Shown: positions 6,701-33,154 of the stretch, piece after piece
How positions within the stretch are numbered: position 1 is the stretch's first letter
Layout: each line of letters opens with the position of its first letter
Source: an uncultured Bdellovibrionales bacterium
Lineage (GTDB): Bacteria > Patescibacteriota > Minisyncoccia > Moranbacterales > UBA1568
Direction of reading: 5' to 3'
Assembly: GCA_964612055.1 (NCBI GenBank)
Contig: CAZTBI010000002.1
Span: 163,529 to 227,528 of the forward strand
DNA: 64,000 nucleotides
The notes under the pieces: generated by a model
Database searches by the model: none
What the model was told of the DNA's origin: nothing
What the model saw: the letters and a program-made list of their open reading frames with translations, nothing else
Program-made: the position numbers and the translations under genes

Positions 6701-7327
6701 ATGAAACACAAACAACATAAAAAAACAGAGTATCAAACACAAAAGCCTCTCTTCCAGGCTGCTTCTTTGTCTTCCATGACACTTTCGAGTGATGTCTTTT
6801 ATGGAGCCTTTCTTTCGCTCTCCTTTGTCGTTGCCACACTTCTTTTTGGTGCTGGTACTAGTCTCGCCAATGTAGAGATCGCTTTTCCAGAAAAAAGTCC
6901 TCGTCAGGTGGTCTTTGAGCACAAGATGCACAAGCTTGTTACTGGCTATCCGATCGAGGCTATGACACCCTATATCGACGAACAAGACGAAACGACCGCT
7001 GCTTATCTAGTGAGTATCGCTAAGAAAGAAAGTAACTGGGGCAAGCGTGTTCCTCGTGCCGAAGATGGTTCTGATTGTTACAATTACTGGGGCTATCGTG
7101 GGGCAGGGAGTCGTGGTATCGCCATGGGTCATGGTTGTTTCGGGAGTCCCGAAGAGGCTGTTGGCGTGGTTGGCGGACGACTCGATACCCTGGTTAATGA
7201 GTACCAGTTCCGTACCCCGGCCGAGATGGTGGTCTGGAAATGCGGCTTTAGCTGTGATGGCCATAGCGGCCAGAGCGTCAAAAAATGGATCACTGACGTG
7301 GGGTACTACTACAACAAAATGCAGTAA
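6701..7327 (+). CDS. Secreted protein, paralog A of a 3-member family with a GH73-like glucosaminidase signature
   Basis: N-terminal TM; IAKKESNWGKR ... CYNYWGYRG ... GHGCFGSPEEAV ... WKCGFSC; compare GH73 ESGWG / NNLFGIK. Four conserved Cys. Confidence 0.45.
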   Translation: MKHKQHKKTEYQTQKPLFQAASLSSMTLSSDVFYGAFLSLSFVVATLLFGAGTSLANVEIAFPEKSPRQVVFEHKMHKLVTGYPIEAMTPYIDEQDETTAAYLVSIAKKESNWGKRVPRAEDGSDCYNYWGYRGAGSRGIAMGHGCFGSPEEAVGVVGGRLDTLVNEYQFRTPAEMVVWKCGFSCDGHSGQSVKKWITDVGYYYNKMQ

Positions 7328-7330
7328 TCT
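7273..7330. repeat. 58-bp direct repeat, copy 1 (3' end of paralog A including the TAA stop)
   Basis: Exact 58/58 identity with 8533-8590. Confidence 0.9.
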
Positions 7331-7442: not shown

Positions 7443-8459
7443 ATGAAGTCCATATCAATAGCAGCAGGACTGTTTCTGGTTGCTTTCTCCGTAGTGGCGG
7501 CGGAAGTGGCTTGTCCGGAACTCACGGCGCCCCAGCGTGTCGCCGGATACCTTTCCTGGATGGGATTTTTCCAGGTCATTGGTGTTACCACTTTGACCGC
7601 CGGCGTGATGTATGTCTTTCGGGGCGTACTGACAGTGATCTGGGGTAGGTTGTGGGCTGTCATTCGCGACATCGCCGACGTACTGGCTCACGTGTTCAGT
7701 CTCGGGCTCGTTGTGGTTGGCGCCTGGGTGCCAGAAGAATACCGCCTGTGGCCAGTGCTCGGCGGGTGCCTCCTCTTCGCGGGGAGCGTCTTCCTCACTA
7801 TCTGGCTACGCAAGTTGAAGGGCGACAGTCCGGCTGGCATATACGGCCTCCTGACGTTCGTGTGGGGGTGTGTTGCGCTCTACTATGGAATGCCTGAAGT
7901 TGGGTTCATAGCGGTGGCCGCTCTCATGGGTCTTCTCGGCTACTCCATCGTCGTCACGCCGTTTTGTTACGGCTTTGGCTTCCGTGATGAACCAACCATG
8001 GTACGGACCACCAGTGCAGCACTCGTGATCCTGGTGTTCTACTCAGTGGCCCAGCTTTTTCCGTCAACTGTTCCGGCACTGCCAGCGGTGTTTGCTACCG
8101 GAGCGTTCTGGCTCGGTTCTTTGGTCGCTTTCACGGGCCTCCTCATCGTTTCGAACAAGCTGTACTTTCAGGAGAAGAAGGATTCCACCTACATGTGGAT
8201 GCAGGCAGTGACCCTTCTGGTCTACCTCGGCGGCACTGCCTACGGCATGATCTTCGGCATCAATGCGCTTGCGGGGATGGCGGGCACCTTCCTGGTGCTC
8301 TACGCCGCCGCCAAGCTGGTGGAGGTCGAAACGAATGGTTACATCACCTTCGGGCTCAAGCTCATGGCCATCGGCGGAATCTTCGCCGGAGCCTGGTGGT
8401 ACGCGACGGCGCATCAGGAAGTGGTCATGAAGTACCTGACCACGACGCTGCCGGTCTAG
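7443..8459 (+). CDS. GC-rich polytopic membrane protein, unknown function (about 10 TM)
   Basis: 338-aa ORF with strongly G/C-biased third positions, unlike the flanking genes; hydrophobic throughout; no recognisable motif. Confidence 0.6.
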   Translation: MKSISIAAGLFLVAFSVVAAEVACPELTAPQRVAGYLSWMGFFQVIGVTTLTAGVMYVFRGVLTVIWGRLWAVIRDIADVLAHVFSLGLVVVGAWVPEEYRLWPVLGGCLLFAGSVFLTIWLRKLKGDSPAGIYGLLTFVWGCVALYYGMPEVGFIAVAALMGLLGYSIVVTPFCYGFGFRDEPTMVRTTSAALVILVFYSVAQLFPSTVPALPAVFATGAFWLGSLVAFTGLLIVSNKLYFQEKKDSTYMWMQAVTLLVYLGGTAYGMIFGINALAGMAGTFLVLYAAAKLVEVETNGYITFGLKLMAIGGIFAGAWWYATAHQEVVMKYLTTTLPV

Positions 8460-8532: not shown

Positions 8533-8590
8533 GAGCGTCAAAAAATGGATCACTGACGTGGGGTACTACTACAACAAAATGCAGTAATCT
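8533..8590. repeat. 58-bp direct repeat, copy 2 (non-coding remnant)
   Basis: Exact copy of 7273-7330. Confidence 0.9.
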
Positions 8591-13249: not shown

Positions 13250-13258
13250 TTTTTTCTA

Positions 13259-14224
13259 ATGAAAAAAAACGCAAAGATTTTTTTAGGAACGGTAATTTTA
13301 ATAGTTGTTGTTTTTTTGTATCAAAAATTCAATTCTCAAGAAGAAGCTAGCCAGACTCAAGGTATGAATGTTTCAGTTTCAGCTAACAACGCAATAGTTC
13401 TTAATCAGGATACCTCAATTAATAGTCAGATAGATGGGGATGGGTTAACAGGATTAAGTATTCTTGACCAAGAATCCAGTAAGACTGAATTCAGCGAGGA
13501 TTTCTCTAGGGATGCTCTTCTTGTAGAAACCGGCTCAATGAATGAGAGTGTTTCTGCGAATTGGTGGCTCAATTCTGGAGCATACCTCTCTATTAGTAAG
13601 GGTCTTGGCGAAACTGTTCAAGGAGAGCTTTCTAAACAGGATGAATGGAGGATAAAATATAAAGATTACAATTCTAGCGAAACCGATGACGGGTATCATC
13701 CACAAAACATCTTCAGGCTTGTAACAAGATATCAGTGGAAGAATTTTCTTCAGGAAAGTTATTTTAAAATTAATCGCTATATTCTTAGCCAAGACAAGGC
13801 TCGGAGTGAGTCAAATGGCCTGCTTCTTTTTAACCGATACCAAGATGGTGACAACCTCTATTATACGGGGCTCAGGGTTGATGGTACTGTTGTTATAAAA
13901 AAGAAAGTTAAGGGAATATACTACACGATGGCTCAGGAGCCTCTCTATCCGGGGAAGTATGATAGAAAGAGTAAGCCGAATCTTCTACCCATTGAAGCCT
14001 GGATAGGATTACAGAGTGAGGTACGAGATAATCCCAACGGAACTGTCTCTATAAAAGTGTACCGAGATAAAGATCGCTCTGGAGACTGGCAGCTTATTTT
14101 GACTGCGATAGACGATGGAAAAAAATACGGGGGAGCGGCTATAAAAAATGAAGGATACGCTGGTATCCGAACGGACTTCATGGATGTCGAGTTTGATGAC
14201 TACAAAATTGAGGAGTTGAAGTAG
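13259..14224 (+). CDS. Secreted/anchored protein, unknown function; possibly a beta-sandwich carbohydrate-binding protein
   Basis: N-terminal TM; no catalytic motif recognised; last gene of the AT-rich block. Confidence 0.5.
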   Translation: MKKNAKIFLGTVILIVVVFLYQKFNSQEEASQTQGMNVSVSANNAIVLNQDTSINSQIDGDGLTGLSILDQESSKTEFSEDFSRDALLVETGSMNESVSANWWLNSGAYLSISKGLGETVQGELSKQDEWRIKYKDYNSSETDDGYHPQNIFRLVTRYQWKNFLQESYFKINRYILSQDKARSESNGLLLFNRYQDGDNLYYTGLRVDGTVVIKKKVKGIYYTMAQEPLYPGKYDRKSKPNLLPIEAWIGLQSEVRDNPNGTVSIKVYRDKDRSGDWQLILTAIDDGKKYGGAAIKNEGYAGIRTDFMDVEFDDYKIEELK

Positions 14225-14312: not shown

Positions 14313-16640
14313 ATGAGTTCTGGGGAGTGCAATACAGTAGGAACATCTATGAACAACAAGGTTTACAAAAAAAAGAAGGCTTCCAATAGTTCTCGCAGGA
14401 GACAGTGGGGGACTGAGCGTGAGAGAGCGCCGCTTTCGAGTATTCACGATCAACCTTCGGGTTATTCTATTGTCTTTAGTCGGGTGGCTATTGTCCTGAC
14501 GGTGGTTTTTTGGGCGATGTACGTGACGTCAGTGGTTATTCGTCAGCTGATTGATGGTCCAAAAAGCTACCAGTTTACTATGGAAGTGCTCGGTTATCTG
14601 ACCGTCACGACCTTTCTGACCTTTTCAGCCCTTGTCTACCTGATTGCCAGGCAAGGGGCACTGCAGCGTTTCAGTAAACACGTGCGTGTCCCTCGGGCGG
14701 TCATCGACAGACATTTCTCTTCTCAGCAGTCATCTATTACGATGCTCATCCCTTCCTATAGTGAAGAGACCGAGGTAGTGCGCAAGACGGTACTTTCCGC
14801 GGCACTGCAGGAATATCCTGATATGCGTGTCGTTCTCTTGCTCGATGACGAGCCTTTCAAGGTGCGTCCTGAGAATAGGAAGCGACTGGAAGCGACGCGT
14901 GCTATCGGAGAGGAAATCGAAATGCTTCTCTCCAAGCCCTCTGAGCGTTTTCGTGAGGCTTTGGAAGAGTTCGAGGCTACCAGCCTGAAAACTGGCACCG
15001 TGACTTTAAATACGGTACCGAAAATAGCGGATCATTATCTGTGGGCAGCCGCTTGGCTCAATCGGTTAGCAGAGAAAGAGGTGATCGAGGACCATGTCGA
15101 TACCTTTTTCGCTGATCAGGTACTGCGTGAACTGGCCAAGGATCTTTCCTTGGTCGGGGAGGCGCTTTTGGTGTCACACAAAGAGGGGGTGCGTTTTTCA
15201 TTGGAGCGTCTCCTTCAGCTCTACCACAGACTGGTCTGGATCTTTGGTGTTCGGGTAGAAGTCTTCGAAAGAAAGAGGTACATCTCTTTGTCGCATGAGC
15301 CGAATAAGGCGATGAACCTCAATTCGTATATCGGACTGATGGGTGGTATGTATCGGCAAGAGCAGACACCGGATGGAATTGTCTTGGTGCCAACCAAGAG
15401 TCAGCGCAGCGCTGACATGATTATCCCTGATAGCGAATTTGTCCTGACGCTCGATGCGGACTCTATTTTGCTCCGCGAGTACTGTCTCCGCTTGGTCTAT
15501 TTCTTGGAGCAACCTGACAATGCTGATGTGGCGGTAGCGCAAACCCCATACTCTTCATTTCGTGGTGCGCCAACTCGTATCGAACGGCTCTCTGGAGCAA
15601 CGACCGATATCCAACACATTATTCACCAGGGGATGAGTCACTACGGTGCTACCTTTTGGGTTGGGGCGAACGCCGTGATCCGCAAGCGTGCCCTGGAAGA
15701 TATCGTAGAAAAAGAATGGGTGGGAGGATTTGAGATAAAGCGTTACGTACAGGACCGTACTGTTATCGAAGATACCGAATCAAGTATCGATTTGGCACTC
15801 CGTGGTTGGAGACTGGTCAACTATCCGGAACGTTTGAGCTATAGTGCGACGCCACCAGACTTTGGCTCCCTCGTCATTCAGCGTCGCCGTTGGGCCAATG
15901 GCGGACTTTTGATACTCCCGAAACTGTGGTCGCTCATGCGAGAACGCAAACATGCGGGTAAGCCCATATCGAAAGTGACCTTCATGATCCGCTTGAACTA
16001 TATGGCGTCCATTGCCTGGTCAAACTTTGGCTTACTCTTTCTCTTGGCCTATCCCTATGACGGACGTCTGCTTAGTCCACTGGTGCTTCTCGCAGCGATG
16101 CCGTATTTCGTCGCTATGGCGATCGATCTCAAGTACTGCCGATATAACTACAGTGACATCATTCGTATTTACGGTTTCAATTTGATTCTCCTGCCGGTGA
16201 ACATTGCTGGAACGCTCAAGTCATTGGAGCAGGCTCTCACCACAAAAAAGACACCTTTTGCCAGAACGCCAAAAGTAAAGGATCGAACATCCGTGGCTTT
16301 GCCGTATGTCCTCTCGCCAGTGCTCATTGTCGGTTTTTCACTCTTTACCCTCTGGCGCAATATTCAGGGCGAAAACTGGGGGAACGCAGCGGCTGCTGGT
16401 TTCAATGCTTTTGCAGCTACCTGGGCTATCTTTTCGTATATCGGACTGAAGAATATGTTTGTTGATATCTGGCTCGGACTGACAGATATGCTCTACGTCG
16501 ATGTTCCTGCCCAAAAGTCTTCCCAAAAACCAGTTGATGATGAGGCTGAATTTAATTGGAAAGGCGTACTGTACCATGGGGAAGTCAACGCGACCGTACC
16601 ACATGAATCGGTCACTGAGATGATACTCAATAAAAAGTAG
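14313..16640 (+). CDS. Cellulose-synthase-like processive GT2 (BcsA/CesA family); no PilZ domain evident
   Basis: ITMLIPSYSEE; DADS; TEDTESSIDLALRGW; QRRRWANGGL; TM helices on both sides of the catalytic domain. Confidence 0.8.
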   Translation: MSSGECNTVGTSMNNKVYKKKKASNSSRRRQWGTERERAPLSSIHDQPSGYSIVFSRVAIVLTVVFWAMYVTSVVIRQLIDGPKSYQFTMEVLGYLTVTTFLTFSALVYLIARQGALQRFSKHVRVPRAVIDRHFSSQQSSITMLIPSYSEETEVVRKTVLSAALQEYPDMRVVLLLDDEPFKVRPENRKRLEATRAIGEEIEMLLSKPSERFREALEEFEATSLKTGTVTLNTVPKIADHYLWAAAWLNRLAEKEVIEDHVDTFFADQVLRELAKDLSLVGEALLVSHKEGVRFSLERLLQLYHRLVWIFGVRVEVFERKRYISLSHEPNKAMNLNSYIGLMGGMYRQEQTPDGIVLVPTKSQRSADMIIPDSEFVLTLDADSILLREYCLRLVYFLEQPDNADVAVAQTPYSSFRGAPTRIERLSGATTDIQHIIHQGMSHYGATFWVGANAVIRKRALEDIVEKEWVGGFEIKRYVQDRTVIEDTESSIDLALRGWRLVNYPERLSYSATPPDFGSLVIQRRRWANGGLLILPKLWSLMRERKHAGKPISKVTFMIRLNYMASIAWSNFGLLFLLAYPYDGRLLSPLVLLAAMPYFVAMAIDLKYCRYNYSDIIRIYGFNLILLPVNIAGTLKSLEQALTTKKTPFARTPKVKDRTSVALPYVLSPVLIVGFSLFTLWRNIQGENWGNAAAAGFNAFAATWAIFSYIGLKNMFVDIWLGLTDMLYVDVPAQKSSQKPVDDEAEFNWKGVLYHGEVNATVPHESVTEMILNKK

Positions 16641-16648
16641 CACCACTT

Positions 16649-18238
16649 ATGAAAGAGTCACGAACCGAAAAAAATATCGTTCATACTGAGTCAAGGAGAC
16701 GGCTTTCCCCTTGGCGAGTTTTACTCGCTTTTTTGGTACTCGGTGGAGTGGCCTACGGTACCACGCTTGGTGTGGATCGGTGGCGAGAAACCGAATCGAC
16801 CACTGTCTACGAACCCTGGTTTGCGGCCTATGTCGATGTGACCTCGACTCCGGAGTATCCTTTTGAACAATTAGGATCAACGGCAACGCCAGATGCGATA
16901 CTTTCTTTCATTGTTTCTTCGAAGACTGAAGCTTGTACGCCAACTTGGGGAACGCACTACACGATGGATAAAGCAGGGATCGCCCTTGATCTCGATCGGC
17001 GCATTGCCAGGCTGGAACAGCAAGGAGGGAGAGTCGCCATATCTTTCGGTGGAGCGATCAACTCGGAGCTTGCCATTTTGTGCCAAGATCATGATGCGCT
17101 GCTTAGTGCTTACGATTCTGTCTTACAACGGTACAACGTCGATACTATAGATCTGGATATTGAAGGTGAAAGTCTGAAAGATACTGAAGCATCAAAACGT
17201 CGTGCTGATGTCATAGCCAAACTCCAGAAACAGTATCGAGAGAGTGGGAAAAATCTGGCCGTGTGGTTGACGCTGCCGGTCGCTCCAAGTGGTCTCGCTC
17301 CAGAAGGGGCGAATGCGGTAGCGCAAATGCTCTCAAGTGGCGTCGACTTAGCCGGAGTGAATGTGATGACTATGGACTATGGTGCTAGTCGAGGAGAGGG
17401 GCAGGGGATGCTCGATGCTTCGACGAGTGCTTTGATTGAGACGCACCGTCAATTAGGAGTTCTCTACAAGCAAGCCGGTATCAGTCTCAATAGTAATTCG
17501 TTGTGGCGAAAAATTGGAGCCACGCCCATGATTGGTCAAAATGATGTGGTGGATGAGGTATTTACTCTGGACGATGCCAAAGGATTCAATGTTTTTTCTT
17601 TGAATCAGGGTGTGGGTCGTATGTCGATGTGGTCAGCCAATCGCGATACTCCCTGTGGAGAAAACTATGTCGATGTGAAAGTGGTTTCTGATTCTTGCAG
17701 TGGTGTGAAGTCAGCGAAGTTTAGTTTTTCTCAGGCGTTGGGAAGTGACTTCAATGGTGATCTGACCCAGAGTGCTTATATTTCAACCACAGAAGATCCT
17801 GAAAGCAACGTCACTATTATCGATAACCCAGAGACGAGCCCGTACCAAATCTGGCAAGAAGTAGGTGCTTATCCAAAAGGCGTGAAGGTGGTATGGCACG
17901 GCAATGTCTATGAAGCAAAGTGGTGGACGAAAAATGACTTGCCTGACAATCCAGTGCTTCAATCATTTGAGACGCCGTGGCAGTTAGTCGGACCAGTGTT
18001 GGTAGATGAGAAGCCTATTGAGCAACCAAAGTTGCCAGCAGGTACTTACAAGCAGTGGTCTGGAGAAACGGTCTATCAAGGTGGTGATCGAGTTCTCTTT
18101 GAAGGTGTGCCTTTTCAGGCTAAGTGGTGGAATCAGGGTGATAGTCCAGCTGCTTCAGCTGCCAACTCAGACGCCTCGCCGTGGATTGCTCTGACGCAGG
18201 CGCAGATTGTCGATATCCTCGAAGAGTTGAAGAAGTAA
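16649..18238 (+). CDS. GH18 chitinase-like hydrolase with two C-terminal CBM5/12 carbohydrate-binding modules, membrane-anchored
   Basis: DTIDLDIEGE = DxxDxDxE catalytic motif; two WW-type modules (VVWHGNVYEAKWWTKND; YQGGDRVLFEGVPFQAKWWNQGDSP). Confidence 0.75.
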   Translation: MKESRTEKNIVHTESRRRLSPWRVLLAFLVLGGVAYGTTLGVDRWRETESTTVYEPWFAAYVDVTSTPEYPFEQLGSTATPDAILSFIVSSKTEACTPTWGTHYTMDKAGIALDLDRRIARLEQQGGRVAISFGGAINSELAILCQDHDALLSAYDSVLQRYNVDTIDLDIEGESLKDTEASKRRADVIAKLQKQYRESGKNLAVWLTLPVAPSGLAPEGANAVAQMLSSGVDLAGVNVMTMDYGASRGEGQGMLDASTSALIETHRQLGVLYKQAGISLNSNSLWRKIGATPMIGQNDVVDEVFTLDDAKGFNVFSLNQGVGRMSMWSANRDTPCGENYVDVKVVSDSCSGVKSAKFSFSQALGSDFNGDLTQSAYISTTEDPESNVTIIDNPETSPYQIWQEVGAYPKGVKVVWHGNVYEAKWWTKNDLPDNPVLQSFETPWQLVGPVLVDEKPIEQPKLPAGTYKQWSGETVYQGGDRVLFEGVPFQAKWWNQGDSPAASAANSDASPWIALTQAQIVDILEELKK

Positions 18239-18376: not shown

Positions 18377-18677
18377 TGAAACTTCCTCATTCTTTTTCGC
18401 CTCTACTGCTACGTGCTCACAAGTTGTACAGCTTGTCTGTTGAGACTCCAGGGTCTCCATAGTTACATCTGACATACGTTTGTATGTTATTTGTTTTTAC
18501 CTGCCCTCCGCAGGTTTTGTTAAAGAGGGGGTTGAGAAAGAAAAAACGGGCTGTAGACGTGGACGTCCTCACCCGTTTTTCACTTCTCAACATATCTATT
18601 ATAGCGCATAAAAAGAGAAAAGTCAAGGGCTTCTCGCGTGGTACAATAAAGATACCAATTTCTTCTTTCTTTTTTCT

Positions 18678-20503: not shown

Positions 20504-21199
20504 ATGAAGAAACGTTATCTTTTCCCCGTCCTCCTTTTGGGGGCACTGACCCTTTCGGGGTGTACGACACCAGAACTTCGCCAAGAAAAAGCCGTCGATG
20601 ACAATCTCGATTTCAGTAACATGAAGCAGGCAGTGCCAGAGAGTGAACAAGTTGCGGAGCCGAAAGAGACTAAACCAGTAATCACCAAAAAAATGTATTC
20701 TTACCAACCAGTGGTATCAATCGATACGACGAAAAAATATACCGCTACCATGAAGACGAGTGCTGGGGAAATGGTTGTTGCCTTGAATGCCAAGGAGACG
20801 CCCATCACCGCCAACAACTTTATTTTTCTCGCTCGGGAGAAATTCTATGACAATACGATTTTCCACCGCACCATTCCTGGTTTCATGATCCAGGGTGGCG
20901 ATCCACAAGGGACGGGTATGGGTGGTCCTGGTTACAAATTTGATGACGAGCCATTTAGCGGAAAGTATGAACGTGGCACGATCGCCATGGCCAATTCCGG
21001 ACCAGATACCAACGGCAGCCAGTTCTTCATCATGCACAAAGACTACCCCTTGCCACCAAACTATGTGATTTTCGGAAAGGTGACGAGCGGTCTCGAAGTG
21101 GTCGACAAAATCGCCGAGGCACCAACGAAGCCTGGTGGCGAAGGCTCAAGTCCGGTTACTCCGGTCACTGTCACTTCTGTGACCATTACCGAAGAATAG
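20504..21199 (+). CDS. Cyclophilin-type peptidyl-prolyl cis-trans isomerase, lipoprotein
   Basis: Lipobox LTLSGC; FHRTIPGFMIQGGDPQGTGMGGPGY. Confidence 0.85.
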   Translation: MKKRYLFPVLLLGALTLSGCTTPELRQEKAVDDNLDFSNMKQAVPESEQVAEPKETKPVITKKMYSYQPVVSIDTTKKYTATMKTSAGEMVVALNAKETPITANNFIFLAREKFYDNTIFHRTIPGFMIQGGDPQGTGMGGPGYKFDDEPFSGKYERGTIAMANSGPDTNGSQFFIMHKDYPLPPNYVIFGKVTSGLEVVDKIAEAPTKPGGEGSSPVTPVTVTSVTITEE

Positions 21200-21218
21200 A
21201 TTTGAGATAAAGATTAAA

Positions 21219-21247
21219 GCCTCTCCAGATGGAGGGGCTTTTTTTGT
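21219..21247 (+). terminator. Intrinsic terminator after the PPIase gene (gcctctcc-agat-ggaggggc-T7)
   Basis: 8-bp stem with one G-U pair plus T-run. Confidence 0.55.
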
Positions 21248-21332
21248 ATGAAAAAGAAAAAACGGCTACTTCGAGGAAGTAGCCGCTTGGGCTTTGGTCT
21301 GGTTCGACCGAGGCTTAGAACTGGCGGTGAAG
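21243..21332. repeat. About 90-bp direct repeat, copy 1 (terminator module)
   Basis: About 98% identical to 22125-22214 (two 1-nt indels). Confidence 0.9.
21251..21285 (-). terminator. Minus-strand intrinsic terminator inside repeat copy 1 (cggctacttc/gaagtagccg + T-run)
   Basis: Perfect 10-bp stem; terminates the 68-aa and 142-aa membrane protein genes. Confidence 0.6.
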
Positions 21333-21337
21333 TTTCT

Positions 21338-21544
21338 TCACTTCCGGCTGGGCATGGGGGTGCTGTAGACGATGCCGATGCCGATGAAGAGAGGCAGGAG
21401 ACCGAACTTCATCACCCAATACGCAGAGTCCTTCCAAATCGGAGCAAATGTCATGACTGCATCAGCCGCGCCGATGAGTACTGCGCCAAGGACTGCAACA
21501 CACCCTCCCTGTAGCACTCGCTTTGTATCTTTGTCCATCTTCAT
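21338..21544 (-). CDS. Small membrane protein (68 aa, 2 TM), unknown function
   Basis: In-frame ATG with GGAG RBS (AAAGGAGTCAGCTATG); the ORF-track version (21338..21817) is over-extended into the upstream gene. Confidence 0.45.
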   Translation of the reverse strand: MKMDKDTKRVLQGGCVAVLGAVLIGAADAVMTFAPIWKDSAYWVMKFGLLPLFIGIGIVYSTPMPSRK

Positions 21545-21576
21545 AGCTGACTCCTTTCGAGTCGGTTGAGCTGGCT

Positions 21577-22005
21577 TTACTTTCCAGCGATGAGGTAGAT
21601 GCCGATACCGGCGAGGATGATGCCGGCAACTTGGCGGAAAGAGGGAAATGACCAGGCAATGACCGAACCGAGGAGTGTCGCGAACACCACCATCATGATG
21701 TTGATAGAGGCGACGAAGATCCAGCTCGGGATGGTCGGATCGACCGACTTGGCGCCGTAGTAGTAGACGGCGATCCCGTTCACGATCCCGACAACCATCA
21801 TGATGCCGAAGTGCCACGAATGGAAGAGCGGGCTTTTCACCATGTCATTCCAGCCAATGGCCAGGTTGCCGATCAGTGTGCCGATGAGAACGAGGATAGT
21901 CACCCACGCTGCCGGCGTACCAGAAATCTTGGCCAGAAGCGGCCAGATCACCATACCAAAGGCAATCAGGGCCGCTGAATACAGATAAGAGGGGATTGTG
22001 CTCAC
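21577..22005 (-). CDS. Membrane protein (142 aa, 4-5 TM), small DMT/EamA-like or unknown
   Basis: GTG start with GGAGG RBS 5 nt upstream; hydrophobic with GxxxG motifs; GC-rich. Confidence 0.5.
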   Translation of the reverse strand: MSTIPSYLYSAALIAFGMVIWPLLAKISGTPAAWVTILVLIGTLIGNLAIGWNDMVKSPLFHSWHFGIMMVVGIVNGIAVYYYGAKSVDPTIPSWIFVASINIMMVVFATLLGSVIAWSFPSFRQVAGIILAGIGIYLIAGK

Positions 22006-22061
22006 GATTTCCTCCGAGAAGGACGAGTTGTTAAGGAGAGTTCATAGAATATGAACCTAAC

Positions 22062-22090
22062 ATGATAGCATATTTTTTATAAAAAGTCAA
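22062..22090 (-). promoter_or_regulatory. Sigma70-like promoter TTGACT-N17-TATCAT for the 142-aa/68-aa gene pair
   Basis: Read on the minus strand; 17-bp spacer. Confidence 0.45.
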
Positions 22091-22124
22091 TAGGTGGTAG
22101 AGAGAGTACTCTTAGTAATGGTTG

Positions 22125-22214
22125 TTTGTATGAAAAAGAAAAAACGGCTACTTCGAGGAAGTAGCCGCTTGGCTTTGGTCTGGTTCGACCGAGGCTTAGA
22201 ACTGGCGGTTGAAG
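22125..22214. repeat. About 90-bp direct repeat, copy 2 (last codons plus terminator of the 275-aa secreted protein gene)
   Basis: About 98% identical to 21243-21332. Confidence 0.9.
22133..22167 (-). terminator. Minus-strand intrinsic terminator inside repeat copy 2
   Basis: Same 10-bp stem hairpin plus T-run as copy 1. Confidence 0.6.
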
Positions 22215-22972
22215 AGGAGTCTGTCAGCCACTGACTGTCCCATGACGGCGATGTTGCCGGGCACGAGGTAGTAGTTGGTGGCCGAGCAGCTAGCCGATGC
22301 GCCCTGGCCCGGCGTGTTGACCAGGTGAACCCGGAAGCCAGCGCTGTTCTGGTCGGTCTTCGGGACGTTGATCCCGCAGGAGAACCCTTCAGCGTGGCAG
22401 GAGACGACGGTGCCGTCGGCATTGGTCGGGGGACCGTTGGGGATGCCGCGTTGGTCGACCCTGACATCCGTCTTGCCACCAGAGACCACGAGGCCTGAGA
22501 GCCACTTGGTGCCGGAGACAAAGGGTTCCCAGGAGCCGTCGAGGAAATCCTCGGGCTTGGGAGCCTGGACCGGGCCGCCGACTGCGTAGCGGTACCGGAG
22601 GGTGCTGTAGCCGACGTAGAAGTCCGCGCCGTTCTTGAAAGCCGGCGAGACGTTCAGGTCGTAAGCGCGCCACTGCAGCAACGGTGCGATGGAGCTGAAG
22701 CCCCAGACATCGTTCTTCCCTTGACCCACGTAGAGAAGGTGAGTGGGACTTTGGTTGCCCTGGCCGACACCGCGCAGCGACATCTGAACTGGCTGGTTCG
22801 GTTCGCCATCGAGACGGAGCTCGGCGGAAACCTGGCCATACAGGAAGACAACGCGGTCGGCGACGGGTGGGGCGGTGATGCCGTTCACGCAGTCGACTGC
22901 CGGGTATTGTGCCCAAGCCTGGGCAGCAGAAACGGCGACGACGATCGTGATGATGGAATGCTTGATTGCCAT
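22196..22972 (-). CDS. GC-rich secreted protein, unknown function (signal peptide MAIKHSIITIVVAVSAAQAWAQ)
   Basis: Start trimmed to the ATG at 22972 behind a strong GAAGGAGGGG RBS; third positions strongly G/C-biased; several Cys. Confidence 0.6.
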   Translation of the reverse strand: MAIKHSIITIVVAVSAAQAWAQYPAVDCVNGITAPPVADRVVFLYGQVSAELRLDGEPNQPVQMSLRGVGQGNQSPTHLLYVGQGKNDVWGFSSIAPLLQWRAYDLNVSPAFKNGADFYVGYSTLRYRYAVGGPVQAPKPEDFLDGSWEPFVSGTKWLSGLVVSGGKTDVRVDQRGIPNGPPTNADGTVVSCHAEGFSCGINVPKTDQNSAGFRVHLVNTPGQGASASCSATNYYLVPGNIAVMGQSVADRLLFNRQF

Positions 22973-23067
22973 GGTGCGGCCCCTCCTTCGAGGCCTAATT
23001 TTGAAGTTGCTGGGTTGCGTCATTCCCTCTCGGGAATGGATTTCCCAGTACCGGAGGATGACATGAA

Positions 23068-23096
23068 ATACTAACAGGAAATACCATTCCTGTCAA
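23068..23096 (-). promoter_or_regulatory. Consensus sigma70 promoter TTGACA-N17-TAGTAT for the secreted protein gene
   Basis: Read on the minus strand; followed by an about 95-nt leader containing hairpin ccattccc-gaga-gggaatgg. Confidence 0.55.
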
Positions 23097-23102
23097 GAGG
23101 CA

Positions 23103-26100
23103 TTATGCCTGTACGGGCTGCTCTTTCTCGGCAAACCAGATACGATAGATCACGGGGATAAAGAAGAGTTTGGCGACACCAGAGAAGGTAAGACCAGCGA
23201 TGATAGCGCCACCGAGTCCCTGCCAGATTGGGTCAGAGAGAGTGATCGGAATGAGACCAACGATGGTGGTGAGGGCGGTCAGGAGAATTGGTTCGAGACG
23301 GCTGGCGGCGCCTTCGCTAATGGCTTGCGAGAGCGGAAGGCCACTATCCATGTTGCGGTTGATCTTGTCGACCATGATGATCGAGTTGTTGACCACGATA
23401 CCGAAGAGAGCGAGGATACCGATCAGAGCTGGGAAGGAGAGAGGGATACCAACAAGTGAAAACATGATGAATACACCCGAGACCGCGAGCGGTACTACCA
23501 TGAGGACGATGAGTGCTTTGCGGAAAGAGTTGAACTGGATAGCCATGGTACCAAAGATGAGAATGGCCGAGAGGAGCATGGCTTTTAGGATCGATTGCAC
23601 CGACTTATTGTTTTCATCATTCACGCCACCTGTCTTCCAGCTGTAGCCCTGCGAGAGTCCGAGGGTATCGGCAAATTTTTCGAGATCGGCATTTACGGTA
23701 CTGATAGAGTAGCCGTCATTGACTCCGGCTGAAACAGAAAGAGTGCGCTTACCATCTTCGCGAGTGATGAGGGTCGGGTTTGGTTCGAGCGTCATTTCGC
23801 CTAAGGCTGAGAGCGGCAGGGTGCTCCCTGAGACAGGAATCGAGATGAGGCCGAGAGTCTCTGGGTGTTCGAGATCAGTAGTATCGCCAAAGCGGAGCAC
23901 GATGTCGAATGTACTGTCTTTCAAATGAGCATCGCTCTTGATGGTGAAGCCACTGCCTAAGGTGCGGAGAAGAAAAGCAGTGTCGTTTTCGCTCAAGCCT
24001 TGTTCGGCGAGTTTTTCTTGGTACGGGGTGAAGACGAGCTTGCTCGCACCGCTCACGATAGACGTAGAAACATTATCCACACCAGGTTGGGTATTCAGAT
24101 ATTCACTCACCTTTTTTCCGTAGTCTTGGAGTTTTGAAAGATCATCACCCAAGAGCTTGAGTTCGATGTCGCTCCCCGCTGGTGGACCACCAGAGAGTTG
24201 GCTCGCCGAAAACTCCCCCTTGTTGTAACTCCCAAATTTGTTGTTCAAATCAGAAACAATTTCCCCAGAGGAATGGGCGCGTTCTTTGGCTGGCGTCATG
24301 ATGAGCGTAAAGAGGAGATGATTCCAGTCTTTGCCGGTGACGAAGTTGTCTGTCGGAGGAGCAGCGCCAATTTCTGCCACCACGAAACGGGCTTCTTCAT
24401 AGCTTCGCAATTGTTCGAGAAGGGAGAGGGCTTCAGTCGTACTCTCGCTGATCGTTGTGTTCTTCGGGAGTTCGACACTGACGAAGATGGTGTCTTGGTT
24501 GTCTTCGGGGAAGAATTCATTGACCACGTACCCGAGCGGGACGAGAGCATACGAGAAGAGGGAAAAGATAATGAGAGCCGTGATCGTTTTGCGACGCGCG
24601 CTTTTGGAATCGAGGATGCCCGCGATGAAGCGCTCGTAGCGATGAGCCAGAGGATCGAAGTTGAAGAGTCCGTCACCAGAGAGTTCGTGAAACTTGCGGA
24701 AGAATTTGGCGAAGTGCGAAGCCTCGTACTCATGAATTTCACTGCGGAGGTACTTAGAAACTTTTGCGATCACCATGAGAATGATGAGGGCAGCAACGAA
24801 CAGTGGTAACTTCACTGGGCCAGCAGGAATGAGAATATAGAGCAATCCGGCACCACCTAAGAAGAGTAGGGTGTAGGTCAAAATGATGACACGACGTGGG
24901 AATGATCCTTTGAGGAGGAGCGCCATGAGCGGGATAACGATGAGAAGAGCGATGGCAGCAGAAATAGCGAGGGATGACGAAACCACGATCGGAATTGGTT
25001 TGATGAATTCGCCGATGATACCGGAAGCGAGAAGGAGCGGCAAAAAGGCCCAGACCGTAGTAATAGTCGTGGTGAAAATGACGGCTCGGAAGTCACGCCA
25101 TACGAGGAGAGCGACTTCATCAGGAGTGAACTTTCCTGTGCGCTCGTAGCTTGCCATGGCCGAGATGATGACGATAGCGTTGTCGACCAAGATACCGAGA
25201 GCCAAGAGAAGTGAGAAAAGGGCGATGAAGTTGATGGAGATGCCCGAAGCACTCATGACGAGGAAGGTACCCAAGAAAGTGAGGGGAATAGCGAGGGCGG
25301 CGATGACTGATTGGCGCAAACCGAAGAAGGTAAAGAGCACCACGAAGACGAGAAAAATAGTGAGTGCAAAGTCATGGAAGAGTTGATCGAAACTTTTTTT
25401 GATTTCTTTGGCGCCATCAAAAACTGGTTCGAAGACAAAGGCTTCGCCGTAGTGGCCACGGAGCGTCTCGGCAGTACTCAAGATACTGCTGACCGTTTCT
25501 GTAGCATCAGCGCTATCAGTTTTGAAAACAGAAAAGACGATACCGCGTACTGGGGCAGTATCTTGATCAGCGTAGAAACTTTCTGGAGCGTTCCGTTTTG
25601 GTTCTTCGCGAATAGTTGCGACTTCACCCAAGGAAACGGTGTTTTGTCCGAGTACCAAGGGAAGGTGACGGAGCTCTTCTACTGAGTCAGCGACGGTGGC
25701 CTGTGTGAGAGCAAAAGAAGTTTGTTCAGTGCTGACGTTCCCAGCAGGATGGCTGGTGATGGCGGTCTCTATACTTTGAGCTACTGCAAAGGGACGGATT
25801 CCTTTTTCGGTCAGAAGCTCTGGTTTCAATATGATACTAATCTCCTCTTCTTTTCGATACGAAATGTTGACCTTTTCTACACCGGGCAGGTCCTTCAACC
25901 GTTCTTCGAGAGTATCAGCAAAACGACCGAGCGTCGCTCCGTCGACTTCTCCGGAGAGGACAAAGTTTAAGACAGGCTGATCCTGGAAATCGAGCACCTG
26001 GACCTTGGGAGTCTCGGCATCTTCCGGGAGATCACTGACGCCATCTAAGGCGCTTTGGACATCGCGCTTGGCTTTTTCTGGGTCAGTACCAGAACCGAAT

Positions 26101-26435
26101 TCAATATTTAAGGTAGAGATATTTTCCTGAGAAACGGAAGAAACTTTTTCGACACCAGAAAGTCCGGTGACAGCATCTTCGAGAGGGACAGTCACGAGCT
26201 TCTCGACATCTTCTGGGCCGGCACCGGGAAAGGGTGTCGCGACAAAGACGATCGGAATCTGGATATTGGGATTGAGTTCTCGAGGCAGCGTGAAAAAAGT
26301 CGCGAGCCCAGCTCCGGTCAAGGTCAATACAATAAGGACGATAGTACGAACGTTCTTGAAGTAGGAGGCGATGAACGTTTCTTTGAGACTCGGATCAAAT
26401 GTCAGTCGATCGAGGAAAGAGGATTCTTTTTGCAT
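23103..26435 (-). CDS. RND-superfamily efflux transporter permease (AcrB-like, 12 TM + two large loops)
   Basis: 1110 aa; N-terminus typical of AcrB/HAE (LDRLTF...FIASYF, TM1, long periplasmic loop). Confidence 0.85.
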   Translation of the reverse strand: MQKESSFLDRLTFDPSLKETFIASYFKNVRTIVLIVLTLTGAGLATFFTLPRELNPNIQIPIVFVATPFPGAGPEDVEKLVTVPLEDAVTGLSGVEKVSSVSQENISTLNIEFGSGTDPEKAKRDVQSALDGVSDLPEDAETPKVQVLDFQDQPVLNFVLSGEVDGATLGRFADTLEERLKDLPGVEKVNISYRKEEEISIILKPELLTEKGIRPFAVAQSIETAITSHPAGNVSTEQTSFALTQATVADSVEELRHLPLVLGQNTVSLGEVATIREEPKRNAPESFYADQDTAPVRGIVFSVFKTDSADATETVSSILSTAETLRGHYGEAFVFEPVFDGAKEIKKSFDQLFHDFALTIFLVFVVLFTFFGLRQSVIAALAIPLTFLGTFLVMSASGISINFIALFSLLLALGILVDNAIVIISAMASYERTGKFTPDEVALLVWRDFRAVIFTTTITTVWAFLPLLLASGIIGEFIKPIPIVVSSSLAISAAIALLIVIPLMALLLKGSFPRRVIILTYTLLFLGGAGLLYILIPAGPVKLPLFVAALIILMVIAKVSKYLRSEIHEYEASHFAKFFRKFHELSGDGLFNFDPLAHRYERFIAGILDSKSARRKTITALIIFSLFSYALVPLGYVVNEFFPEDNQDTIFVSVELPKNTTISESTTEALSLLEQLRSYEEARFVVAEIGAAPPTDNFVTGKDWNHLLFTLIMTPAKERAHSSGEIVSDLNNKFGSYNKGEFSASQLSGGPPAGSDIELKLLGDDLSKLQDYGKKVSEYLNTQPGVDNVSTSIVSGASKLVFTPYQEKLAEQGLSENDTAFLLRTLGSGFTIKSDAHLKDSTFDIVLRFGDTTDLEHPETLGLISIPVSGSTLPLSALGEMTLEPNPTLITREDGKRTLSVSAGVNDGYSISTVNADLEKFADTLGLSQGYSWKTGGVNDENNKSVQSILKAMLLSAILIFGTMAIQFNSFRKALIVLMVVPLAVSGVFIMFSLVGIPLSFPALIGILALFGIVVNNSIIMVDKINRNMDSGLPLSQAISEGAASRLEPILLTALTTIVGLIPITLSDPIWQGLGGAIIAGLTFSGVAKLFFIPVIYRIWFAEKEQPVQA

Positions 26436-30990: not shown

Positions 30991-31005
30991 ATTGAGTTTG
31001 AACTC

Positions 31006-31035
31006 TTGACTTTGTCTGTTTGCTAAAGGTATTCT
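31006..31035 (+). promoter_or_regulatory. Sigma70-like promoter TTGACT-N18-TATTCT for cassette a
   Basis: Read directly; RBS GAAAGG before the ATG at 31078. Confidence 0.4.
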
Positions 31036-31077
31036 TGTGGGGCAGTAGTTCCTCAACCCCATACCGAAAGGTACACC

Positions 31078-31824
31078 ATGAGTGCAGAACTGATAAACAT
31101 TCAGGCACAGGCAAACTTTTTCAACTTGAGCCAGAATCCCTATCCTGGCCGAGGGATCGTGGCTGGTCTCGACGAAACAGGCCAGTACATGGTTCAGGTC
31201 TACTGGATCATGGGGCGAAGCGAGAACAGCCGGAACCGCGTGTTCAAGGTTGATGACGAAACCGGGCGACTCTTTACCGAAGCCGCCGATCCGTCGAAGG
31301 TGAAGGATCCGTCTCTCATCATCTACAACGCGATGCTTGAAGCTCCTCCGTTCTACGTCGTGAGCAACGGCGACCAGACAGACACAGTCATCGGTGAGCT
31401 CAATAGAGGGCCGTTCTTTCTAGAGTCTGCTCTGTGCGGAAGGGAATACGAACCGGATGCCCCAAACTTCACGCAGCGGATCACAGCTGTGGGTAAGCTC
31501 GACAGCAGACTCGGTCAGCGCATCATGATGTCGATTTTGCGCAAGTCAAGATTCGGCGACAGGTGCGATCAGCACACCTATGAGCTGCATTCTGGTCCTG
31601 GCTTCGGTTTCTGCGTCACGACGTATTCGGGTGACGGGGACCCGCTTCCGCCTTTCCGCGGTGATCCGCTCCTTATGCCACTTGTGGGCGGAGCGGAGGA
31701 CATCGCACGGACCTACTGGGACGCACTCAACGAAGCGAATCGCGTTTCGCTGGCGGTGAAATGGATCGAGATCGGTAACGGTCGCTCCGACATCTACATC
31801 ATCAACGAGTACACGCAGGGGTGA
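31078..31824 (+). CDS. PurO-like (archaeal-type IMP cyclohydrolase family) protein, GC-rich
   Basis: GRGIVAG...YWIMGRSENSRNRVF and VVSNGDQTDTVIGEL resemble PurO motifs (YRVSSRSFPNRV; VVSNGSQTD); recalled from memory, not searched. Confidence 0.4.
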   Translation: MSAELINIQAQANFFNLSQNPYPGRGIVAGLDETGQYMVQVYWIMGRSENSRNRVFKVDDETGRLFTEAADPSKVKDPSLIIYNAMLEAPPFYVVSNGDQTDTVIGELNRGPFFLESALCGREYEPDAPNFTQRITAVGKLDSRLGQRIMMSILRKSRFGDRCDQHTYELHSGPGFGFCVTTYSGDGDPLPPFRGDPLLMPLVGGAEDIARTYWDALNEANRVSLAVKWIEIGNGRSDIYIINEYTQG

Positions 31825-31877
31825 CGTGAAGTCTCAACTCGTAATAGTCTCAAGCCGCAGGGTATCGCCCAGCGGCC

Positions 31878-31908
31878 TTTTCTTTTTTCAAACAAAACAA
31901 GTTCGAAT
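31878..31908 (+). repeat. Conserved 3' box, copy a (TTTTCTTTTTTCAAACAAAACAAGTTCGAAT), preceded by hairpin gccgc...gcggc
   Basis: Shares the core with the boxes at 32392 and 33096. Confidence 0.8.
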
Positions 31909-31980
31909 CTGGTGTGGACAAACTAAGAAAAAGAGGGTACTCTTCTAAGTCCAATCTCGGACTTGTTCTTCGGGGGAAGT

Positions 31981-32352
31981 ATGCAATATCTGAAGTGGTA
32001 TGGAGGCCCGATCACGGGATTCTATGGCCGGATCGAAATCAATCGGTACAAAAATGAGGGTACCAAGCTTCATTTGACGAATCTTCCTTGGTCCGCCCTC
32101 GTCGAAGAACGCGCGAAGAACCCATTTCCTGACGTTCGCGTCGATCCTCATGGGAGTGACTATGAGTACGAAAAGAGGGCAAATGAGCTCATCGAGCTCT
32201 TGAACACTACCGATGACATCATGGTGTTCAAGATCGCTATGAATACCCTCATCAGGCTCGTTCAGGGCGAGAGGGCGTCACCTATCTATCCCGGGGAACA
32301 GTATCACCCGGACCTTTTGGAGGAAGCCATCAGGCTTTCGGAAGAGGAGTAA
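31981..32352 (+). CDS. Hypothetical protein (123 aa), GC-rich cassette b
   Basis: ATG at 31981 behind GGGGGAAG; no recognised motif. Confidence 0.45.
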   Translation: MQYLKWYGGPITGFYGRIEINRYKNEGTKLHLTNLPWSALVEERAKNPFPDVRVDPHGSDYEYEKRANELIELLNTTDDIMVFKIAMNTLIRLVQGERASPIYPGEQYHPDLLEEAIRLSEEE

Positions 32353-32391
32353 GTCGTCTACCGCAGAAGTCGCATGGCAACACCCGGCGGC

Positions 32392-32424
32392 TTTTTTCTT
32401 TTCTCAAACCAAACAAGTCCGAGC
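32392..32424 (+). repeat. Conserved 3' box, copy b (TTTTTTCTTTTCTCAAACCAAACAAGTCCGAG)
   Basis: Identical to box c at 31 of 33 positions; preceded by a GC hairpin. Confidence 0.85.
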
Positions 32425-32488
32425 TTTATCTAAGAAGTGGGGCAGCTTCTAAAAGAGGTTTTAGTAAGCATCTTTTTGTATTTACATA

Positions 32489-32517
32489 TTGACTAACCTT
32501 CAAAAAAGAAGTATAGT
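32489..32517 (+). promoter_or_regulatory. Sigma70-like promoter TTGACT-N17-TATAGT for cassette c
   Basis: Read directly. Confidence 0.45.
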
Positions 32518-32571
32518 ACTAAGTCCTTAAATCTAAGGGCGAGTTCTTCAATCTAACCTGGGGAGATACCC

Positions 32572-33054
32572 ATGGCAACATACAGCGCCCCTTATTACCC
32601 CGCGCGCATCATCGAGACAGTTTCTCAGGTGATTGCGCTTGGTAGGCAGGCTCAACTTTTCGACCACCATAAGAGCGATGGGTGGTTCACCCTTGCGCTC
32701 AAGGATGGTGCCACGGTCTTGGGTTTTGCGGTACCTGGACCGTTGTCTGCCACGCTGGCATTTGACTATCGGCATCACTCAGAGGAGCAGGTCTCGTGGC
32801 TTCGGTCACACGAACTTCTCACGAGCAATGTTTGGGTCGAACACAACGTGAGCGAAGCGGTGGCTGCGCAGGGCTACGATTTCTACTTCAGCTTTGTCTC
32901 AGCGCTTCCGCGGGAATGGAATGAGGCCATTGTGGTGGTCTCGGCAGTGTGTATGCGTCAGTTCAACCAGAGTGTCATCGACAATCCGGCGTGGCATCTC
33001 AAGAGCAACCCGCATATCAACGAACTTCTCGAAGTGGCGCATTGGACCAAATGA
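32572..33054 (+). CDS. Hypothetical protein (160 aa), GC-rich cassette c
   Basis: No recognised motif; third positions G/C-biased. Confidence 0.5.
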   Translation: MATYSAPYYPARIIETVSQVIALGRQAQLFDHHKSDGWFTLALKDGATVLGFAVPGPLSATLAFDYRHHSEEQVSWLRSHELLTSNVWVEHNVSEAVAAQGYDFYFSFVSALPREWNEAIVVVSAVCMRQFNQSVIDNPAWHLKSNPHINELLEVAHWTK

Positions 33055-33095
33055 CTCGGTCATGGTCACAAAACATAGAAGAGCCTGGCCAGCTC

Positions 33096-33128
33096 TTTTT
33101 TCTTTTCTCAAACCAAACAAGTTCGAAT
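33096..33128 (+). repeat. Conserved 3' box, copy c (TTTTTTCTTTTCTCAAACCAAACAAGTTCGAAT), preceded by hairpin agagc...gctct
   Basis: 31/33 identical to box b. Confidence 0.85.
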
Positions 33129-33154
33129 TTTCTTTCAGGAGCGAAATACCCCTC

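Follow-up and report, generated by a model that had tools for sequence, protein, structure and literature searches.

Long direct repeats flank a two-gene unit at a hot spot of orphan genes in a Patescibacteria genome

The 64,000-nucleotide stretch considered here, referred to throughout as the window, comes from an uncultured bacterium of the Patescibacteriota (contig CAZTBI010000002.1 of assembly GCA_964612055.1). The locus in question is the interval between two of its core genes, which are convergent and encode an AcrB-like transporter of the resistance-nodulation-division (RND) type and a cyclophilin-type peptidyl-prolyl isomerase (PPIase). Two small transcription units are found within this interval. 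Unit A encodes a secreted protein of 258 amino acids (aa), whilst unit B encodes two membrane proteins of 142 and 68 aa and is bordered on either side by a copy of a long direct repeat, R, that contains the 3' end of the unit A gene. The copy that belongs to unit A is called R2 and the copy beyond unit B is called R1. Unit B entered the site after unit A, and it is likely that its insertion duplicated the end of its neighbour. Related loci and contigs used for comparison are denoted by L-numbers, and the coordinates of the features are collected in Table 1.

When the window is compared with itself, positions 21240-21290 match 22122-22172 (51 nt, 98% identity) and positions 21290-21328 match 22171-22209 (39 nt, 100%), the second block being offset by one base from the first. 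With gaps allowed, the copies extend to about 92-94 nt (21240-21333 and 22122-22215) and differ by one mismatch and two 1-nt indels. No repeat of this kind is expected by chance in 64 kb, and R is present in just these two copies in the window and was not found outside the orthologous position in 947 kb of related loci. Each copy contains a minus-strand hairpin of 13 pairs, at 22170-22142 in R2 and 21288-21260 in R1, which is followed by TTTTTTCTTTTTC. The predicted folding energy of both hairpins is -26 kcal/mol (z = -4.4 and -4.95 against shuffles), and R is predicted to act as an intrinsic terminator, having a GC-rich stem-loop and a U-run at the end of a transcription unit. The stem is preserved through compensatory changes in L014 and in an additional unit, encoding a 270-aa protein, that is carried by L106.

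The repeat also includes coding sequence. In R2 the 22196-22972 gene comes to its end, with the final codons ...LFNRQF* and the stop at 22196-22198, whilst R1 holds a vestigial ...HRQF*. The His codon seen in relatives with a single copy of R, and hence ancestral, has been retained in R1 and is replaced by Asn in R2. On the outer sides, the left of R2 runs into the 258-aa gene and the right of R1 into the ancestral PPIase terminator. Private differences are found in each copy, strain by strain, and no clear signal of concerted evolution is apparent in the window, L001 and L002, since the differences between R1 and R2 are independent in the three. In one strain the loop of the R1 hairpin is inverted (L003 866-891, with CTTCGAGGAAG in place of CTTCCTCGAAG), which is the signature of an intra-hairpin strand switch.

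The promoters of the two units are the two best sigma-70-type matches in the region, each agreeing at 10 of the 12 positions and carrying a TG ahead of the -10 element, and they share no similarity beyond the consensus hexamers. The unit A promoter is conserved in L001, L101, L102, L014 and L106. The leader of about 95 nt that follows it is, by alignment, almost invariant in six genomes, including L014 and L102, in contrast to the core genes, for which dS (synonymous divergence) exceeds 1 in the comparison with L014. No Rfam family corresponds to this leader, which is a candidate for a new cis-regulatory RNA. The 258-aa family has four close and three remote members among 1.84 billion representatives, and the gene evolves with a dN/dS (ratio of non-synonymous to synonymous divergence) of 0.28, against 0.01-0.07 in its neighbours. 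It has no Pfam family, and neither do the 338-, 129- and 160-aa proteins described below. The AlphaFold2 model of the 258-aa protein has a mean confidence (pLDDT) of 30 and is unusable.

The unit B insert is about 790 bp, with ...GAAGAAA at the end of the 68-aa gene and CAACCATTAC... at the start of the unit. Unit B has no terminator of its own, and hence R1 would supply one. The stem in its 5' untranslated region (UTR) differs by compensatory changes in L010, L013, L095 and L100. The paired segments of this stem are GTTCAT/ATGAAC, GTCGA/TCGAC and GTCCGT/ATGGAC, followed by a conserved CCTCTTTAACAA motif and GGAGG, and the stem-loop is located at 22006-22061 on the minus strand of the window, at about 7945-8000 in L010, about 415-468 in L013 and about 980-1034 in L100. 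The 142-aa family, with 85% mean column identity and a dN/dS of about 0.15, is under purifying selection, and the 68-aa open reading frame (ORF) is intact in all five strains; both genes are real. Relatives of the 142-aa protein are few, with eight close clusters among 5.8 billion sequences and 17 found by profile search. It covers the whole of the EamA profile (PF00892) at 20.9 bits, below the Pfam gathering cut-off of 28.2, and its distant relatives P0020 and P0023 bear PF00892 matches. Its AlphaFold2 model is poor (pLDDT 52) and was used only to count helices, five being predicted.

Both units stand out in their composition. The GC content at third codon positions (GC3) of their genes is 0.65-0.80, as compared with 0.54 in the PPIase gene and 0.57 in the RND gene, a per-gene comparison proposed in an earlier note on this DNA, and the two-gene unit is compositionally foreign. 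The same note had set out most of the anatomy. Its two copies, placed at 21243-21332 and 22125-22214 with about 98% identity, are slightly longer than described, and the minus-strand terminator hairpin with a T-run that it reported in each copy has a stem of 13 pairs. The overlap of the second copy with the ...RQF* end and terminator of the secreted-protein gene, the TTGACA-N17-TAGTAT promoter of that gene (23096-23068) and the structured 95-nt leader with its ribosome-binding site (RBS), which lies within the leader hairpin, are all found as claimed. So too is the self-contained unit between the copies, with its TTGACT-N17-TATCAT promoter, GGAGG, GTG-started 142-aa gene, 68-aa gene and copy 1. 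The secreted protein was given the right coordinates (22196-22972) and the wrong length, 275 aa, which is that of the longest ORF (start 23023); the RBS, the gene calls in other assemblies, the homologues and the coordinates themselves agree on 258 aa.

Table 1. Positions of the features of the AcrB-PPIase locus and of comparable insertions in the window
Feature	Position	Strand	Description
RND (AcrB-like) transporter gene	23103..26435	-	Pfam ACR_tran, E = 1.7e-159; conserved left flank
Unit A promoter	23068..23096	-	TTGACA-N17-TAGTAT, TG-extended; begins 6 nt past the AcrB stop codon
Unit A 5' leader	22973..23067	-	About 95 nt; RBS inside hairpin GGCCUC-GAAGGA-GGGGCC
Unit A gene	22196..22972	-	258-aa secreted orphan; signal peptide, four invariant Cys; GC3 0.80; evolves fast
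R2	22122..22215	-	Functional 3' end of unit A: last 5-6 codons, stop, 3' UTR, hairpin, T-tail
Unit B promoter	22062..22090	-	TTGACT-N17-TATCAT, TG-extended; similar promoter in L013
Unit B 5' UTR	22006..22061	-	Stem-loop, then CUCCUUAACAA, then GGAGG RBS
Unit B gene 1	21577..22005	-	142 aa, five predicted membrane helices, weakly EamA-like; GTG start; GC3 0.755
Unit B gene 2	21338..21544	-	68 aa, two predicted membrane helices; fast-evolving partner; GC3 0.65
R1	21240..21333	-	Duplicate of R2; predicted terminator of unit B; vestigial HRQF codons and stop at 21315-21329
Ancestral PPIase terminator	21216..21241	+	Sole element between AcrB and PPIase in empty-site relatives
Cyclophilin-type PPIase gene	20504..21199	+	Pfam Pro_isomerase, E = 2.2e-42; conserved right flank
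338-aa case, copy 1	7273..7330	+	Functional last 18 codons and stop of a 208-aa gene
338-aa unit	7443..8459	+	Membrane orphan; GC3 0.72; own promoter TTGACA-N17-TAGAGT, own terminator with TTTTTCTTTT tail
338-aa case, copy 2	8533..8590	+	Vestigial copy of 7273-7330: 58 nt, 100% identical
ATPase-FtsX hot spot units	31078..33141	+	Three stacked GC3-rich units: 248-aa PurO-like, 129-aa, 160-aa

The order R2-unit B-R1 is present in three independent assemblies that are 96-99% identical to the window. L001 (NCBI GCA_020049755.1) is 96% identical over 4.9 kb; L002, a single MEGAHIT k127 contig from SRR5306409, spans the region from inside the 258-aa gene to the PPIase gene with 97.5% identity; and L106, from the Joint Genome Institute (JGI 3300045502), is 98.8% identical. 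Samples that carry the strain are SRR16481186 (contig L009, 100% identical), SRR5306403/04/09, SRR21621037/38 and JGI 3300045502. The arrangement is therefore genuine rather than an error of assembly, and R1 and R2 are two loci, not one collapsed repeat, since each differs in its own way in each strain.

Among relatives the site is encountered in several states. Orthologues of the AcrB-like and PPIase genes flank it in L012-L017, L043, L101, L102 and L106, and for the PPIase the closest species-representative genomes are metagenome-assembled genomes of Patescibacteria, the best credibly labelled match being 'Candidatus Moraniibacteriota'. The interval is empty in L015, L016, L017 and L043 (PPIase 54-77% aa identity), where it measures 57-105 nt and contains a single terminator hairpin. 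In L101 (PPIase 97% aa and about 90% nt identity), L102 and L014 it holds the 258-aa unit only, with one R that runs straight into the PPIase terminator. The full series of 258-aa unit, R2, 142-68 unit and R1 is seen in the window, L001 and L002, and L106-L108 (98-99% identical to the window) have in addition the 270-aa unit, placed between the AcrB stop codon and the 258-aa promoter. A different combination is found in L012/L013, which contain a 142-aa gene (64% identical) with another small partner and other terminators and no 258-aa gene. The variants without unit B that the earlier note had proposed to look for thus exist, both with a single R (L101, L102, L014) and with neither unit (L015-L017, L043).

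The 270-aa unit occupies about 1 kb (L106 211-1228, also L107 and L108) and corresponds to window 23098-23121. Its product is a secreted paralogue of the 258-aa protein (26% identical), and the terminators of the two are similar. In the strains that carry it the last AcrB codons also differ, and the sole sequence common to the junctions is TTGACA.

The 142-aa gene is clearly mobile among genomes. It is found in at least seven genomic contexts, namely the AcrB-PPIase site, L013, an interval between a methyltransferase gene and what we take to be a tsaB-like gene (L010, L104), 3' of a 418-aa gene (L095-L099), 3' of a tRNA gene (L100), the MreB-AspRS interval (L103) and 3' of a PilB-like ATPase gene (L111). 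In the seven loci checked the gene has a GC3 of 0.65-0.84, against 0.32-0.62 in its neighbours, and the exact window protein is encoded on eight public contigs. The closest other copy, in L111, is 85% identical and has a different context, promoter type and partner gene. The pairing with the 68-aa gene, the recurrence of which the earlier note had left to be checked, is frequent and facultative: L100 and L104 have, after the 142-aa gene, a homologue of the 68-aa protein (72 and 67 aa respectively, 30-42% identity), whilst other copies have a 111-aa soluble partner or no partner. At L104 1-160 a TPR-like peptide continues in frame into a 142-aa homologue that is represented by its C-terminal half only, owing either to a chimeric contig or to a genuine fusion or truncation.

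Long target duplications are seen at other insertions. The earlier note had pointed to an insertion of the same architecture at 7.3-8.6 kb of the window, and the 338-aa membrane protein gene there does lie between 58-nt repeats that are 100% identical. The arrangement is also found in L014, at about 80% nt identity, where the copies (18539-18586 and 17279-17326) are only 79% alike, which suggests gene conversion or re-acquisition in the window lineage. In L100 the 3' end and terminator of a 170-aa gene (130 nt, 84-89%; 2002-2130 and 2762-2890) recur as a dead copy (...HWTE*) directly after the adjacent operon of 142-, 80- and 72-aa genes. The block of two units is, as a whole, enclosed by two copies of a stretch of about 75 nt (82%) from upstream of the Ham1 gene (about 880-954 and 3040-3112). 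The same dead 'HWTE*' module is found in L104, 3' of a 142-67 pair and without the 170-aa gene. No long flanking repeat was detected at L010, L013, L095, L103 or the 270-aa unit of L106. Hence, of the recurrent insertion mechanism suggested earlier, the recurrence is supported (the 338-aa unit, L014, L100), whereas a dedicated mechanism is not established. The 208-aa gene whose 3' end is duplicated in the 338-aa case has two tandem paralogues, at 56987-57940 and 58166-58996, and the blocks 6981-7308, 57591-57915 and 58644-58971 share 66-74% nt identity.

A second hot spot is located in the convergent interval between genes for a P-type ATPase and FtsX (30991-33154). In each of its three stacked units a promoter and a terminator are present, together with a copy of the tail TTTTTTCTTTTCTCAAACCAAACAAGTTCGAAT, and the 248-aa protein of the first is a PurO-like IMP cyclohydrolase (PF07826). 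In L014 a single, unrelated 137-aa orphan occupies the interval, and L019 has nothing there but 77 nt. The window 160-aa gene is 33% identical to the L100 170-aa gene, and their terminators are much better conserved than the proteins. A promoter and leader hairpin, AAGTCCAATTCGGAC, is common to units that are not homologous, namely the window 129-aa, L014 137-aa and L100 170-aa units. Hairpins followed by TTTTT(T)CTTTT number nine in the window, against an expectation of 0.16, and six of the nine terminate GC3-rich units. At window 42720-42920 a 66-aa ORF with a GC3 of 0.63 is associated with a terminator at 43032 that has an accessory-unit tail, TTTTTTTCTTTT, and it may be another small inserted unit.

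Genes for mobility were absent from the sequences examined. Pfam scans of 45 window proteins gave no integrase or transposase, and the precomputed Pfam matches of the context contigs contained no mobility gene. The ends of 21334-22121 have no inverted repeats. There is no tRNA match in the window, and nothing reaches an Rfam gathering score, only terminator-like noise being returned for 21100-23200. None of seven unit proteins matched a PHROG, and no relatives of the units were found in viral contigs, phage records or plasmid records.

Taken together, it is considered likely that the AcrB-PPIase interval is a hot spot into which unit B was inserted, with duplication of about 92 bp of the target, by housekeeping functions of the cell, and that the island subsequently spread by recombination. 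The graded states of the site lead to a history of three steps (empty, unit A, unit B). The ancestral interval would have held one terminator between the AcrB and PPIase genes. Unit A, with its promoter, leader, 258-aa gene and terminator R, would then have been gained before the window lineage parted from those of L101, L102 and L014. Unit B would have followed recently, after the split from L101, which is about 90% identical, and in the lineage whose members share 96% identity or more with the window. It appears to have landed at the 3' end of unit A, where about 92 bp comprising the last five codons, the stop codon, the 3' UTR, the hairpin and the T-tail would have been duplicated. As a result of this duplication R2 would keep unit A intact and terminated, whilst R1, with its dead HRQF*, would terminate unit B.

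Two routes can be envisaged for such an insertion. A Campbell-type single crossover of circularised or concatemeric DNA bearing R would give exactly R-X-R. Alternatively, replication may have switched template at the two back-to-back terminator hairpins, leaving after R, copying unit B and re-entering before R. The island could then have passed from strain to strain through homologous recombination in the core genes on either side. Such interstrain spread is suggested by the low dS of the island relative to its flanks and by the patchy differences: between the window and L001 dS is 0.019 for the 142-aa gene and 0.055 for the 258-aa gene, as against 0.16-0.26 in the PPIase and DsbD-like genes, although the counts are small, and the differences are clustered in patches. 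The two findings accord with the description of hot spots that lack mobile elements (PMC5635113). Since direct repeats flank it, unit B should be precisely deletable.

Several points weigh against this interpretation. For unit B, no donor copy in native flanks turned up, which leaves the junctions unreadable for microhomology and the two routes inseparable. The Campbell-type crossover needs R to be already present on the incoming DNA, which leaves the first event unexplained. About half of the insertions (L010, L013, L095, L103 and the L106 270-aa unit) have no long flanking repeat, and the duplication is therefore a signature that need not be present. The 58-nt repeats, being identical in the window and so much less alike in L014, need one of the two additional processes mentioned above. 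Moreover, the lower dS of the GC3-rich genes may in part reflect codon constraint.

Other explanations have to be set beside this one. Under site-specific integration, R and the 58-nt repeat would be attL and attR, and unit B a small non-autonomous element mobilised in trans by an integrase encoded elsewhere, resembling the cis-mobilisable elements (CIMEs) that insert into 3' ends of genes and restore them. Direct repeats that include the 3' end of a target gene are the classical signature of integrase-mediated insertion, and this is what the repeats contain, the pattern recurs at several sites and the 142-aa gene clearly moves. An integrase, however, is missing from the window proteins scanned and from the context contigs, the repeats differ in sequence from site to site (the 92-nt R, the 58-nt repeat, L100) and range in length from 48 to 130 nt, many insertions of the 142-aa gene have no repeats, and the viral, phage and plasmid records hold no relatives. 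Site-specific integration is thus regarded as improbable.

A second possibility is that unit A was duplicated in tandem and that unit B afterwards took the place of the second copy's promoter and body, leaving only R1, with the terminator and the final five codons. Remnant codons of the 258-aa gene are indeed present in R1, stacked paralogous units do occur at the hot spot (the 270-aa and 258-aa units with their similar terminators), and in L100 the vestigial copy is upstream of its source gene, as fits replacement of a first copy. Such a history nevertheless requires two illegitimate joints in addition to an earlier duplication, no trace of the promoter, leader or body of the 258-aa gene is left between R2 and R1, and no genome with two 258-aa units was found, which makes it unlikely.

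It could also be proposed that the GC3-rich orphan units belong to an undescribed cassette system, in which the shared modules serve as recombination substrates when units are captured by a dedicated process, with 50-130 bp of the target being duplicated. The gene for the enzyme would lie at another place in the genome or on an episome that escaped sampling. In support of this, 5' modules are shared by non-homologous ORFs, and the 3' modules (TTTTTTCTTTT-tailed terminators, R and 'HWT[EK]*') are far better conserved than the ORFs they accompany. The chance of such a system is small. A conserved motif of about 30 nt, GAGTTCTTACCGTAG.TACTACCCAGC, with a terminator after it, recurs between accessory units in L010 (8886-8907), L011 (1060-1081) and L100 (2104-2125, 2864-2885 and about 3838-3872), with a related form in L095/L097. 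As a universal attachment site it was rejected, being absent from the window.

An assembly artefact, whether a chimeric join or a mis-resolved repeat loop, was an option left by the earlier note and might be suspected from the short contigs (L003-L009), several of which break at or inside R, and from the composition of the unit, which differs from its surroundings. It is effectively refuted by L001, L002 and L106, the products of different assemblers and projects from strains 1-4% diverged, all of which cross both repeats in one order, by the distinct private variants of R1 and R2, and by the 338-aa case, conserved in L014. That R is simply a common dispersed terminator or repeat, of the repetitive extragenic palindromic (REP) or miniature inverted-repeat transposable element (MITE) type, is refuted, for although several GC3-rich units do share the hairpin and TTTTT(T)CTTTT tail, full-length R is confined to its two copies in the window and to the orthologous position in 947 kb of related loci, and it includes coding sequence of the 258-aa gene.

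A low-GC island (GC 0.37-0.40, GC3 0.32-0.37) at window 8740-14224 encodes a GT2 glycosyltransferase, a PMT_2-like protein, a polysaccharide deacetylase and an unknown protein, and is probably a variable cell-surface polysaccharide cluster. L001 matches the right-hand end of this island at only 80% and is joined there to window 18221 onwards, and so it seems to be without 14313-18220. L001 4925-6092 contains about 1.1 kb that is not in the window (18626/18677 junction), with three small genes, one of them with an HTH_3 domain, and may be a toxin-antitoxin-like insert. Inside a 1194-aa gene (37572-41156), a unit of about 700 nt is present in four tandem copies (window 37851-40256; 62-71% identity).

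The Patescibacteria (candidate phyla radiation, CPR) have tiny genomes, and gene gain in them is poorly understood. The AcrB-PPIase locus offers a clean natural series of empty, one-, two- and three-unit states, in which self-contained foreign orphan genes have been added where convergent genes leave a permissive site, and no mobile-element machinery can be recognised. It indicates that an insert can gain a terminator by copying that of its neighbour. With long direct repeats at its ends, the newest unit could be deleted reversibly, which would be a simple way for strains to come to differ in gene content; in metagenome assemblies these repeats also act as break points. The fast-evolving secreted protein and the small membrane proteins are plausible candidates for a role in the interaction between episymbiont and host.

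Several known systems resemble the locus in part. As in att-flanked islands and CIMEs, the direct repeats hold the 3' end of the target gene and the gene stays intact. Unlike such islands, there is no integrase to be found and no common core to the repeats, the inserts are tiny and many are without repeats. The small one- or two-gene units stacked head to tail, each with a structured 3' element, are reminiscent of integron cassettes. In those, however, the attC site is an imperfect palindrome with extrahelical bases and a GTTRRRY core that follows a promoterless ORF, whereas both units here have strong sigma-70-type promoters and end in a perfect 13-bp hairpin and U-run. Likewise, no intI/attI/Pc platform was found, the neighbours being the RND transporter and PPIase genes. 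The locus further differs from an insertion sequence (IS), transposon or MITE in having no terminal inverted repeats and a duplication of about 92 bp instead of the short 2-15 bp. For integron arrays, IS elements, MITEs and att-flanked islands alike, defining features were tested for and are lacking in the sequences examined, and the locus is therefore assigned to none of the four.

Phage morons are autonomous promoter-gene-terminator units of atypical composition that sit between resident genes. The units described here are likewise autonomous transcription units of atypical composition between resident genes, but they are chromosomal and not part of a prophage, and they have no PHROG, phage or viral-contig relatives. 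A further parallel is Campbell-type insertion-duplication, in which heterologous DNA also comes to lie between two direct copies of the target and for which housekeeping recombination suffices. In naturally transformable bacteria, transformation can trigger duplications bordered by repeats (Johnston et al. 2013, PMC3784515). Those natural cases involve kilobase repeats and duplications of 100-900 kb, as compared with 58-130 nt of homology and an insert of about 0.8-1.3 kb here. In contrast to Campbell-type cases, the origin of an R-bearing donor is unexplained.

Hot spots without mobile elements diversify by recombination at the core genes that flank them (Oliveira, Touchon and Rocha 2017, PMC5635113), and a related concept is the 'minimal mobile element' of Neisseria (Saunders and Snyder 2002, as cited in PMC1538595). 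The AcrB-PPIase locus has the structure of both, namely a fixed core-gene interval, variable whole-gene units and empty sites. As in such hot spots, no integrase, transposase or inverted repeats were found, and the mosaic divergence of the flanks is compatible with homologous recombination. It departs from these definitions in that two window units are bounded by long (58-92 nt) target duplications, that the window units bring their own promoters and, mostly, their own terminators, that they encode extreme orphans (17 and 7 relatives in databases that run to billions of proteins), and that the host is a CPR bacterium. The locus is therefore a variant of known hot-spot biology and no new kind of element. 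What is unusual about it is the long target duplication that doubles as a borrowed terminator, the consistent GC3 excess of a very rare pool of orphans, the conserved 5' and 3' modules around unrelated ORFs, and the CPR host.

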